Program-made: the position numbers and the translations under genes | Shown: positions 3,968 through 32,762 of the stretch, piece by piece | Numbering within the stretch: position 1 is the stretch's first letter | Layout: every line of letters starts with the position of its first letter | Notes under the pieces: model-generated | The model's input: only the letters and a program-made list of their open reading frames with translations | What the model was told of the DNA's origin: nothing | Databases searched by the model: none | Source of the DNA: Stegostoma tigrinum | Taxonomy: Eukaryota | Direction: 5' to 3' | Length of the DNA stretch: 62,151 bases | NCBI RefSeq assembly: GCF_030684315.1 | Contig: NC_081358.1 | Coordinates: forward strand, 34,723,828-34,785,978

Positions 3968-4061
3968 AGACAACAAGGTGTAGAGCTGGACGACCACAGC
4001 AGGCCAAGCAGCATTAGAGGAGCAGGAAAGCTGACTTTTCGGGTCTGGACCCTTCTTCAGA
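3968..4061 (-). mobile_element. Mini Penelope-like element, family A (single arm, no tail) with hammerhead-like motif
   Basis: Minus strand reads CTGAAGAAGGGTCCAGACCCGAAAAGTC; possible 7-bp TSD AATTCTG at 3961..3967 and 4062..4068. Confidence 0.7.
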
Positions 4062-4400
4062 AATTCTGTCTTTTTTTTAGAAAGAACTTGACAGTTTCTG
4101 AGTGGAAGGAGACTTCAGGCAGGTTTGTAGTTCAATTGCCAGATTTAGAGTGAAAATTGGGACACTCAGTGGTTTTGAAAGTCTTCTGTATGACTACAAA
4201 GCTACCTGCAAATCAGAAGTAGCAGTTCCAGCCTGCAGCAACTCCCAATTTACATAAAAACCAGCAATGCTTTTCCCATCTGAAGTGACCACCAAATTTG
4301 TCTGGTGGCTGTACCAGATCTGCAACAGAAACACAAGGTTGATAATGTAGAAGGTTGAAATCAAATGAGCTAAAGGGCCTTCTTCATCTGAGAAATAGTA

Positions 4401-4925
4401 ATGGAGAGAAGGAGGCTAAGAGGGGATTTAATAGAGACATACAAGATGATCAGAGGATTAGATAGGGTGGACAGTGAGAGCCTTTTTCCGAGGATGATGA
4501 CTTCAGCTTGTACAAGGGGGCATAGCTACAAATTGAGGGGTGATAGATTTAAGACAGATGTCAGAGGCAGGCTCTTTACTCAGAGAGTGGTAAGGGCGTG
4601 GAACACCCTGCCTGCCAGTGTAGTTAACTCAGCCATATTAGGGGCATTTAAACTGTCCTTGGATAAGCATATGGATGATGACGGGATAGTGTAGGGTGAG
4701 GGGCTTAGATTAGTTCACAGGTCGGTGCAACATCGTGGGCCAAAGGGCCTGTTCTGCGCTGTATTGTTCTATATTCTATATTCTATTCTATGAATGGGAA
4801 GGACCGAGAGGGATAGGGACCAAATGTGGGCAATTGGAACTAATTGAGTGGGCACCATGGTTAGCATGGGCCAGTTTGGGCCAAAGGGCCTGGTTTCATG
4901 CTGTATTACTCTATGATTCTATGCC
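4401..4925 (+). mobile_element. Two CR1 3' ends in tandem (4401..4790 well preserved; 4791..4925 older)
   Basis: ORF MERRRLRGDLIETYKM...TRGHSYKL...FTQRVVRAWN; tails (TTCTA)n and CTATGATTCTATG. Confidence 0.9.
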
Positions 4926-29894: not shown

Positions 29895-31780
29895 CAGCCA
29901 CAATGAGTTCCACAGATTCACCACCCTCTGGCTGAAGAAGTTCTTCCTCATCTCACTGATAAAGGGTTGTCCCTTCGCTCTGAGGCTGTGCCCTCAGGTC
30001 CTAGTCTCTCCTACTAGTGGAAACGTCTTCTCTACGTCCACTCTATCTAGGCTGCTCAGTATTCTATGTATTACAATCAGACTCCAGCCCCCATCCCACT
30101 GAACTCCGTTGAGGGCATGGCATGATGACTTAGAGATTAGGACTGTTGCCTTATTGTGCCAGGGGCCTGGGTTCAATGCTGCCCACGGGTGACTGTTTGT
30201 GTGGATTTTGCATGTGCTCCCCATGTCTGTGCAGGTTTCCTCTGGGTGGTTTCGTTTCTTTTCCCACAGTGCAAAGATGTGCCGTTTAGGTGGATTGGCC
30301 ATGCTAAATTGACCCATACTGTCCGGGACGTGTGGGCTAGGTGGATTAGCCATGGGAAATGCAGTGTTATATGGATAAGGAAGGGGGTTGGATCTGGGTA
30401 GGATGCTCTTCGGAGGGTCAGTGAGGACTCGATGGGCAAAATGGCCTGCTTCCACACTGTAGGGATTCTATACTTACAGACCCAGGATCCTCAACCACTT
30501 CATAAAGGACAAGCCCGACATGCCTGGGATCATTCTTGCAAACCTCCTCTGGACTCCCTCTAATGCAGCACATCCTTCCTTTGATACAGGGCACAGAACT
30601 GTTTACAATATTCCAAAAGCAGTCTGATTAGAGTCTACACAGCCTCAGTAGTACATTCCTGTTGTTGTACTCTAGCCCTCTCAAAATGAATGTTTACATT
30701 GCATTTGCCTTCCTGACTATCAAATGAACTGCCAAGTTAACATTAAGAGAATCCTGAACTAAGATTCCCAAGTCTTTTTGTGCTTCAGATTTCCAGAGCC
30801 TTTTCCCATCTAGAAAATAGTCTACACCTCTATTCTTCTGAACAAAGAGCTTAGCCTCCCACTTGCCCACATTGTATTTAATTGGCCATTTCTTTTCCTA
30901 TTCTCCCAACCTGTTCAAGTCCCTCAGAAGCCTCCCCACTTCCTCAACACGACCTGTCCCTCAACAATCATTGTGTCATCTGCATAAATAGCAACAATGC
31001 CCTCTGCTCCTTTGTCTAGAGTATTAACATGTAATGTGAATAGTTGTGATCCCAACGGGGACCGCTCTGTACCCCCACTAGTCGCCTGCTGCCAATCTGA
31101 AAAAGAGCACTTTATCCCCACTCTCTGCCTTCTGCCAGTCAGCCAATTCTCTATCTATGCCTGTACCTTATCGTATTTAGCAGCTTCCTGTGTGGCACCT
31201 TTTCAAAGGCCTTCTGGAAATCCAAATAGATCACATCTACTGGCTCTCCTTTGTCTAACTCATTCTTTACATCCTCAAAAAATTGTAACATATTTGTCAG
31301 GCATGACCTCCACTTGACAAAGCTATGCTTACTCAGCCTTGTTTTACCTTCCAATTCCAAGTATTCTGCAGTCTCATCCTTCATAGTAGCATCTAAAATC
31401 TAACCAAGGACGGGCTAACCAGCCTATAGTTTCCTGTCTTCTGCTTCACCTCTTTCTTAAACAGGGGTGCTAAATGAGCCATTTTCCAGTCCAAGTTTAA
31501 GCCTTCAAACCCCATACAGATACTGACAGCTTCATGGTATGCTTCTGATTAGCTCCCAAATGATGTTCTGTCCCAAACTCTGTAGGTTGGCAGGCCCTGG
31601 AGCATTATTAGCTTTCAGTTCCATTAATTTCCCCAGCATTTTCATTTAACTGATCCTAACCTCCCCAGTGGATTCTTGCTTCCTAAGCATGCCTGGGAGG
31701 TTACTTATCTTCTTTTGTGAACTGAAGTAGTTGGTTAATTGTTTAGCTATTTCCTTGTTCACCATTAACACTTCTCCCGT
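29720..31780 (-). mobile_element. Old CR1 LINE interrupted by a V-SINE
   Basis: RSCLTNML.FF..VIYLDFQKAFEKVPH, YADD and FPLVGETRT on minus. Confidence 0.85.
30113..30470 (+). mobile_element. HE1-like V-SINE, near full length
   Basis: tRNA-like head with GGGTTCAATGC, V-domain, CR1-type tail ACACTGTAGGGATTCTAT. Confidence 0.85.
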
Positions 31781-31854
31781 ATTGTTTAGTTTTTCAACGG
31801 CTTCTTGGATAAAATTGTTTTGGAATTTTCTTTCAGCAGCTTATTTATTACAGG

Positions 31855-32762
31855 TTAAAAACAAAAAGAAACTGCAGATGCTGGAATCCAATGTAGACAA
31901 ACAGGAGGCTGGAAGAACACAGCAAGCCAGGCAGCATCTGGAGGAAAGGAGCAGTTAATATTTTGGGGATTACTGCCTTTCACAAGCACTGTACCCTTTG
32001 CCACTCCTTACTTTGCACCACACTCCCCACCAACCACTCCAACCCGCTGGGTACCTTCCCCTGTTACTCTAAAAAATATAACACTTGCCCAGATAACACA
32101 TCCCTCACCTTCATCCAGGGCACTAAACAACCCTTCCAGGTGAGACACAGCTTCACCTGCACCTCCTCCAACCCAGTCTATTGCATCTGGTGCTCCTGAT
32201 GTGGTCTTCTCTACGTCGGTGAGGCCAAACGTGGACGAGGTGACCATTTCGCCGAGCATCTTCGCCTGGCCCATAACAGCCAACCTAACCTCCCGGTCAC
32301 CGCCCATTTCAACTCCCCGTCCCAATCCCCCTCCAACATTTACGTCCTCAGCCTCCTCCAGTGTCACAGCGACTCAGAATGCAAATTTAAGGAACAACAT
32401 CTTATCTTCACATTTCCTGAGCACCCTACAGCCTAGAGGACTCAACATTGAGTTTCAAATAAACTTTCCCACCCATCACCCGGCCCACTTTCCAGCCCCA
32501 CCTCCTCCCTCACATTCCACCCACTGACCCTCCCTTCAGTCACCAACTGGATTCATCTCTCCCATCAACCACCCAACTAGTACCTGCTACCAGTGTCCAC
32601 CTATCACCACCATTCCGCTACTCACTGCCCCCTCTTTATCTGCAGCTCCCCCTAACCCCATATCCACTCCTGAAGAAGGGTAATACCCAAAATGGTAACT
32701 GCTCCTTTCCTCCAGATGCTGCCTAGCCTGCTGTGCTTCTCCAGTCTCCTGTTTGTTTCCTC
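31855..32762 (+). mobile_element. Penelope-like element 3' part (GIY-YIG endonuclease relic) with inverted terminal arm and TSD
   Basis: FTCTSSNPVYCIWCS..CGLLYVGE..R..F.EH and LQPRGLNIEF; decayed hammerhead CTGAAGAAGGGTAATACCCAAAA at about 32670; inverted arm plus tail at about 31858..31975; TSD TATTTAT(TA/CT)CAGG at 31842..31854 and 32763..32775. Confidence 0.85.

Follow-up and report, generated by a model that had tools for sequence, protein, structure and literature searches.

Hammerhead stubs and palindromes in the window

The stretch analyzed here (the window) comprises 62,151 nt of the Stegostoma tigrinum genome (NC_081358.1:34,723,828-34,785,978; C5:34.72-34.79 Mb of a 3.2-Gb genome). 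It carries short elements, single or head to head, which, judged by their sequence, are the 3′ ends of Neptune-type Penelope-like elements (PLEs): the end of a pseudo-long terminal repeat (pLTR), made up of a hammerhead ribozyme and a tail. Their 5′ ends pile up 3-5 bases before the ribozyme core, in the youngest subfamily mostly behind an extra G, and the likely reason is that reverse transcriptase (RT) had there reached the capped start of its RNA template and ran off. Positions are counted from the C of the CUGANGA core as 0, negative upstream and positive into the ribozyme and tail; cleavage is predicted before +28 in family A and before +30 in family B.

The simplest copies are stubs on the minus strand. 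An A2 stub (3968..4064) has the core (C at 4060) and the 3′ pLTR to +93; its 5′ end, 4061-4064 (-1..-4), is blurred because it overlaps a 7-bp target-site duplication (TSD; 3961-3967/4062-4068). An A1b stub with a tail (11822..11952; TSD 11806-11821/11950-11965) ends at 11951/11952, or -4. Another family A stub with a tail (13266..13395) ends at 13395 (-3) with a G in front and lacks a convincing TSD, and a B-like stub (22765..22857, core C at 22852) ends at 22857 (-5), again with a G in front.

Other copies carry an inverted arm. The A1 palindrome, within the TSD 10640-10656/10884-10900, joins an untailed minus-strand arm (10654..10748; -3..+92) to a tailed plus-strand arm (10749..10883) that runs to +124; CCCC stands between the arms, so the second arm can be read as starting at 10749 (-7) or, after these four extra bases, at 10753 (-3). 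One A2 palindrome (12784..12990; TSD 12775-12790/12992-13007) has one arm that ends at +4 and another at about +11, positions within the core and stem II (site 12878). In another (TSD 13865-13878/14076-14089), the tailed minus-strand arm (13880..13976) ends at +29, adjoining the predicted cleavage site, and the untailed plus-strand arm (13978..14074) spans -3..+93. The family C copy (12206..12345, minus strand; core C at 12302) has approximate boundaries, and no TSD was found; its 5′ end at 12304 (about -2) meets a short inverted arm at 12305-12345, and the natural upstream sequence was read by eye. A family B copy (25850..26039, plus strand; core C at 25903; TSD 25841-25853/26033-26045) ends at about 25898 (about -5) against a short inverted arm (25850-25896) ending at +53. 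In family D, the inverted minus-strand arm (31860..31975) ends in stem II (about +8..+10), and its long plus-strand partner (31976..32760) passes the core and contains an endonuclease-region remnant, the 3′ UTR, the core (C at 32670) and the tail; 32015-32368 is 67% identical to the endonuclease region of family A.

A preliminary description of this DNA had listed ten sites where arms end at the core. All ten are present within a few bases, but the list was selective, omitting seven arms of the same interval that end elsewhere. These omitted arms end at +10 (10154), +27 (11134), +29 (13976), +43 (18345, weak), +24 (22348) and +53 (25896), and the arm partnering 31975 runs more than 600 nt beyond the core into the endonuclease region. 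Two further TSD-flanked A1b palindromes (39617-39762 and 43596-43741) have arms that end at about +35..+45 and contain no ribozyme.

Identity of the elements

Many copies extend upstream of the core into a pyrimidine-rich UTR and then an open reading frame (ORF) that contains both a CX4CxxC linker and a GIY-YIG motif. Copies reading past the tail enter an ORF that starts at about +166 and has DKG and YIDD motifs. A single ORF with an RT domain is seen as an 817-aa open frame in loci L142 and L155, cut by the locus end; the Pfam RVT_1 matches (E 5e-6 and 3e-5) fall slightly below the curated cut-off. The N-terminal region of the ORF (L142:2549-4999) contains a TADGTPP repeat whose copy number varies between copies. 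The C-terminal GIY-YIG endonuclease (EN) motif was read in loci L005, L003 and L064, and its Pfam match is weak (E 0.044, below cut-off). Between RT and EN, locus L064 has the linker CNRRKCYTC, which fits CX2-5CxxC, a feature of Neptune that is common to Nematis, as given in part of PMC8557442. The label "Neptune-type" rests on this linker, which Nematis has too.

An RT ORF, a C-terminal GIY-YIG domain, a pLTR with an optional tail of 30-40 bp, partial tandems, inverted 5′ copies and TSDs were all found, as is expected of endonuclease-bearing (EN+) PLEs. The parts of PMC8557442 and PMC3846280 drawn on describe the same ORF, Cys linker, hammerhead-bearing pLTR, optional tail, head-to-head arms, inverted 5′-truncated copy, TSDs and partial tandems. 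The 3′ ends of family A copies fall at +86..+100 in 125 of 244 and at +114..+125 in 112 of 244, with main sites near +93 and +124. Both sites carry a TTATC motif, and the target sequence often overlaps it.

A minimal type I hammerhead with core, stem II and palindromic stem III was read in families A, B, C and D. Read by eye, helix I has 4 bp in B and C and only 2 contiguous pairs in A1, against a norm of 4-5 bp for the type. An Rfam scan of the window at E<=1 returned no hammerhead family match; its miRNA-like matches on the palindromes were set aside as chance. Metazoan PLE hammerheads, as far as PMC4209133 was drawn on, share CUGANGA, the bulged base, stem II, GAAA, the palindromic stem III and the short helix I, and they too are mostly single truncated motifs with some opposite-strand pairs. 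A non-LTR retrozyme or autonomous short element was rejected for the window stubs, which are single or inverted, not tandem, and have unique junctions.

The preliminary description held that the ends recur across unrelated families, which goes too far. A1, A1b and A2 are subfamilies of family A and account for six of the ten sites, and across the endonuclease region the DNA of families A, B and D is 67-71% identical; family C was not linked to them. The element class is known and the elements are ordinary. The clustering of 5′ ends is real, and the mechanism first proposed for it is here replaced.

5′ ends peak just before the ribozyme core

Breakpoints were sampled in 105 evenly spaced 10-kb stretches of the genome (1.05 Mb), with copies located via their 3′ tail and 5′ ends set by anchored alignment. 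The sample holds 244 family A copies, 237 of them uncensored, and 88 family B copies, 86 uncensored; the copy number of families C and D is too low for a breakpoint distribution. Because alignment broke at UTR indels, 5′ ends beyond about -100 are unreliable, and such copies count only as having passed the core.

As the preliminary description had supposed, the distribution is peaked and not smooth. Of 124 family A copies that reach -1, 53 end at -7..-1, where the rate at +6..+55 predicts 6.7 (p 6e-34; 33 loci), and the upstream edge is sharp, with 0 of 71 ending at -14..-8. For family B the count is 32 of 41 against 3.2 expected (22 loci). The peak is present in single copies (17/52) as well as in inverted arms (35/45). 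It also lies at the same position in copies primed at +93 (32/63) and at +124 (20/55), so a length ruler was rejected as its cause.

As had been stated, the ends are not cleavage products, since neither +28 in A nor +30 in B shows a peak. The ends inside the core and stem II, which had been counted with the cluster, form no second peak: the rates at +6..+27 are near background (0.94 vs 0.68 %/nt in A, 1.53 vs 0.86 in B). Splicing was rejected as well. In A (-22), B (about -13) and D (window 32645) the core is preceded, at a distance of 13-25 nt, by a pyrimidine tract and an acceptor-like AG; 6 of 71 ends fall at -25..-15 around the family A site, and flanks are unique. EN+ PLEs are described, in the portions of PMC8557442 and PMC3846280 used here, with 5′ truncation at no preferred point, in contrast to the one-base edge, extra G and single tail per palindrome reported here.

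An extra G at the junction

Genome-wide exact patterns were built to require a non-C base in front of the start, and all four also need a non-C at -11. A G precedes starts at C(-4) in 4212 of 6140 matches (68.6%). One base further in, the control, G precedes starts at T(-3) in 964 of 3361 (28.7%), with 26% expected from composition. When 38 junctions of C(-4) starts were read in loci, 31 had the G: 14 of 20 with inserted bases, all 14 flush joins, and 3 of 4 without a TSD. Among the control junctions at -3, a G was present at 6 of 12 with insertions and at 3 of 13 that were flush. The C run of A1b stops at -5, and there the G sits at -6 (40 of 73 truncated copies, by eye, among 100 matches listed, with 27 mutated long copies set aside).

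A cap-derived extra G marks full-length L1 insertions in the account taken from PMC11702581. Here an extra G at a fixed 5′ end stands out in A1, less strongly in A1b, is displaced in B and is unclear in A2. The TCT core promoter consensus, given as YYC+1TTTYY in the part of PMC4102762 consulted, is matched in full by A1b and with one mismatch by A1, and the G precedes the +1 C; this is a match of sequence only.

Proposed run-off at a capped RNA end

We propose that RNA polymerase II would start at the pyrimidine initiator just before the core in the upstream pLTR, giving an RNA that begins at about -4 and continues through the ribozyme, tail and ORF. RT would then prime at +93 or +124, the 3′ ends observed here, from nicked target DNA. 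It would copy the uncleaved ribozyme to the RNA end; the position of that end and the G are observed, and a cap copied as C would yield a cDNA of 97-128 nt resembling strong-stop DNA. This cDNA would be joined to the target as a stub, whose junctions and TSDs we observe, although the order of events is conjectural, or to a second cDNA from the other strand and the other start site as a palindrome. Longer copies would come from templates that continue upstream, whether read-through RNA, circles or strand transfer.

Much of this has a counterpart in Poseidon of Anolis carolinensis, as characterized in vitro in the main text of PMC11167929. That element also has two RT start sites one tail apart, about 90-125 nt past the core, uses uncleaved RNA as template and extends both strands. 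It differs in belonging to another clade and in an ORF that starts in stem II rather than at about +166, and its main text gives no analysis of 5′ ends or caps in genomic copies. Priming at internal sites of uncleaved RNA is described there only in vitro, and the lack of a cleavage-site peak in our sample agrees with such a substrate (PMC11167929). The Anolis element needs RNA downstream of the start sites, found only at the pLTR-ORF junction (PMC11167929, main text); if this is valid here, priming would take place near the transcript 5′ end.

Retroviral minus-strand strong-stop DNA is the product of RT running off a capped RNA 5′ end. Full-length L1 is similar, with run-off at the capped 5′ end, an extra G and a G that can serve as microhomology, to go by the part of PMC11702581 used. 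Unlike both, priming here would be internal, about 100 nt from the 5′ end, so that run-off gives an integrated stub. Penelope of Drosophila virilis likewise has an internal promoter inside the pLTR; its start, as given in part of PMC2377424, lies 46 nt before a 75-nt intron and about 120 nt before the ribozyme, versus a proposed 4 nt here. The end of that intron meets helix I (PMC4209133, in the section drawn on).

Several observations weigh against this account. The family B excess of G stands before -3 (11/14) and is weak before -4 (5/14), in a set partly selected by pattern, so an initiator (Inr) guessed at A(-4) and common to all families fails in B and was rejected. The A2 counts are small (G in 3 of 6 at -4 and 3 of 4 at -5), and at 9 flush joins among 22 inverted junctions the G can be assigned to the opposite arm. 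The initiator match is weak evidence in so pyrimidine-rich a tract, and -4 is also constrained by stem I pairing. The extra G is better evidence of run-off at the end of an RNA than of a cap, and the transcript 5′ end is read from genomic copies, not from transcripts. Exact long A1 matches that pass the site number 71,802, compared with 6140 and 3361 short ones, which carry the extra not-C condition. The majority of young A1 copies thus continue past the site, which requires most templates to reach further upstream; overall, stops are less frequent in the youngest A1 copies. Finally, only 1 of 16 long ORF-bearing copies ends at -4 in its upstream pLTR. This rarity, where a linear RNA would predict such ends, is what makes the assumption of templates continuing upstream necessary.

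In loci L189, L193, L240 and L146, short copies of the core (about +1..+8) are inserted immediately in front of the 5′ end, as if RT had run off and then primed again on that RNA.

Alternative explanations

The main rival, which we consider unlikely, is that the RNA end is uncapped. A 5′-3′ exonuclease might trim a longer transcript to the edge of a protein-bound ribozyme, or a few masters might start on a genomic G; the G would then be untemplated or templated by the first base. Such an end would account for an edge on the 5′ side of the fold in all families, for the short helix I and for the restriction to the copy adjoining the priming site, and the Anolis ribozyme is protein-assisted according to the main text of PMC11167929. 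Against it, the G tracks the C run (-5 in A1, -6 in A1b) instead of keeping a fixed distance from the core, and no upstream pLTR begins G-CTCT among 65 loci. These loci were picked by the tail-ORF junction pattern (1677 genome matches), after 5 overlapping or duplicated loci had been dropped from 70.

The preliminary description had suggested that the folded ribozyme stalls RT or triggers template switching and so fixes the element length, which now appears improbable. Both A and B do have their peak at the core, ends are more frequent at 0..+5 (2.8 %/nt in A), and in 5 of 25 long copies the upstream pLTR has its 5′ end at +5..+17. But RT reads its RNA from 3′ to 5′, and a structural stop is therefore expected 3′ of the fold (+28 and beyond) or within it. 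At -4 the whole ribozyme has already been copied, which puts the peak 5′ of the fold, where it gives a stall no support. In two real pLTR-ORF junctions the site is also predicted to be free of pairing (mean probability 0.10-0.16 at -8..-1), the extra G counts against a stall, and the excess at 0..+5 reads as the trimmed shoulder of the peak. In the upstream pLTRs and mini-arrays of the 65-locus set, RT passes the core 57 times at 37 loci and ends once at -7..-1. Against the A1 sample rate of 15/51 this gives p 0.001 when each locus counts for a single pass, although the 16 long copies taken by themselves give p 0.09, and the arrays may also have grown at the DNA level.

It is slightly less probable still that longer cDNAs are joined to the target or to another arm by microhomology that favors -4. 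Microhomology is common at the junctions, but the same pyrimidine words recur all along the upstream UTR, and few copies end there (10 of 71 over -50..-8). The G, moreover, is absent from the element, so homology between element and target does not select it.

Folding back of the cDNA, through complementarity of stem I or core, could in principle self-prime, make the palindromes and fix the turning point. In B and A1b the core has short self-complementary words on either side, and self-priming has been proposed for PLE palindromes in the part of PMC3846280 drawn on. The peak is also found in non-inverted copies, and the tails contradict fold-back. There are 56 head-to-head family A pairs, and 49 with unequal 5′ ends could be scored: 46 have exactly one tailed arm, 3 have none and 0 have two. 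Under fold-back, the 5′-longer arm must extend no less far in the 3′ direction than its partner. Of the one-tail pairs, 22 carry the tail on the 5′-longer arm and 24 on the 5′-shorter, and these 24 cannot be produced by fold-back. We regard it as very improbable, and fold-back template switching is not supported as the source of the palindromes. They instead resemble the product of two cDNAs that were primed separately, each on its own strand and at its own start site, which fits the extension of both strands from two start sites by the Anolis protein in vitro (PMC11167929, main text).

Least credible is an artefact in which the element or a short master begins at the peak or alignment fails upstream: the higher peak fraction in older subfamilies (B 32/41) is what failing alignment would yield, but 64 copies of A and 5 of B continue through the site with upstream sequence in common, the flanks of other, non-inverted stubs are unique apart from two pairs, and TSDs abut many peak ends at junctions that vary copy by copy. 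The TSD-bounded unique junctions refute an artefact for family A, and less fully for B, C and D.

Mini-elements and other features

At L118, L125, L135-L138, L145, L165, L168-L170, L172 and L175, a deletion joins the ORF start (+227..+260) to the 3′ UTR (-43..-134). The resulting mini-elements often form 2-7 tandem units with inverted ends, and the ORF-side breakpoint recurs. In locus L173:2030-3200, a 166-bp unit that spans the core C (0) to +169 occurs seven times in tandem. The mini-elements fit rolling-circle copying and retrozyme-like arrays. PMC4209133, in the part used, proposes cleavage and circles; the stubs here lack ends at the cleavage site, while the mini-arrays do fit circles.

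The window also contains a 310-aa open frame (57872-58801, minus strand) that resembles what we take to be the C-terminal exon of CHD7/8/9, a 42-bp minisatellite of about 36 copies (20372-21898), and a 236-aa LINE-type RT fragment (45999-46706, minus strand), presumably CR1/L2-like.

Implications for Penelope-like elements

In the titles and opening abstracts of the PLE literature we found no 5′-end peak or cap G, with most subscription papers and Repbase reports outside the search, and the supplementary genomic end plots of PMC11167929 may bear on novelty. The term "strong-stop" was not found in the PLE papers of the literature searched.

Taken as a whole, the following picture is one we put forward tentatively, at a little short of even confidence. 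A TCT-type start would double as the first strand of helix I. A dimeric RT would prime both target strands, each at a different end of the tail, both cDNAs would run off the cap, and the strong-stop-like cDNA would be integrated; inverted pLTRs would then be two such cDNAs head to head, and the stubs would map the start to one base.

The replication cycle of PLEs, the role of the hammerhead and the origin of inverted pLTRs are described as open in the parts of PMC8557442, PMC3846280 and PMC11167929 drawn on. An RNA start mapped to one base from thousands of insertions, an uncleaved template in vivo and the one-tail rule would make these questions directly testable.

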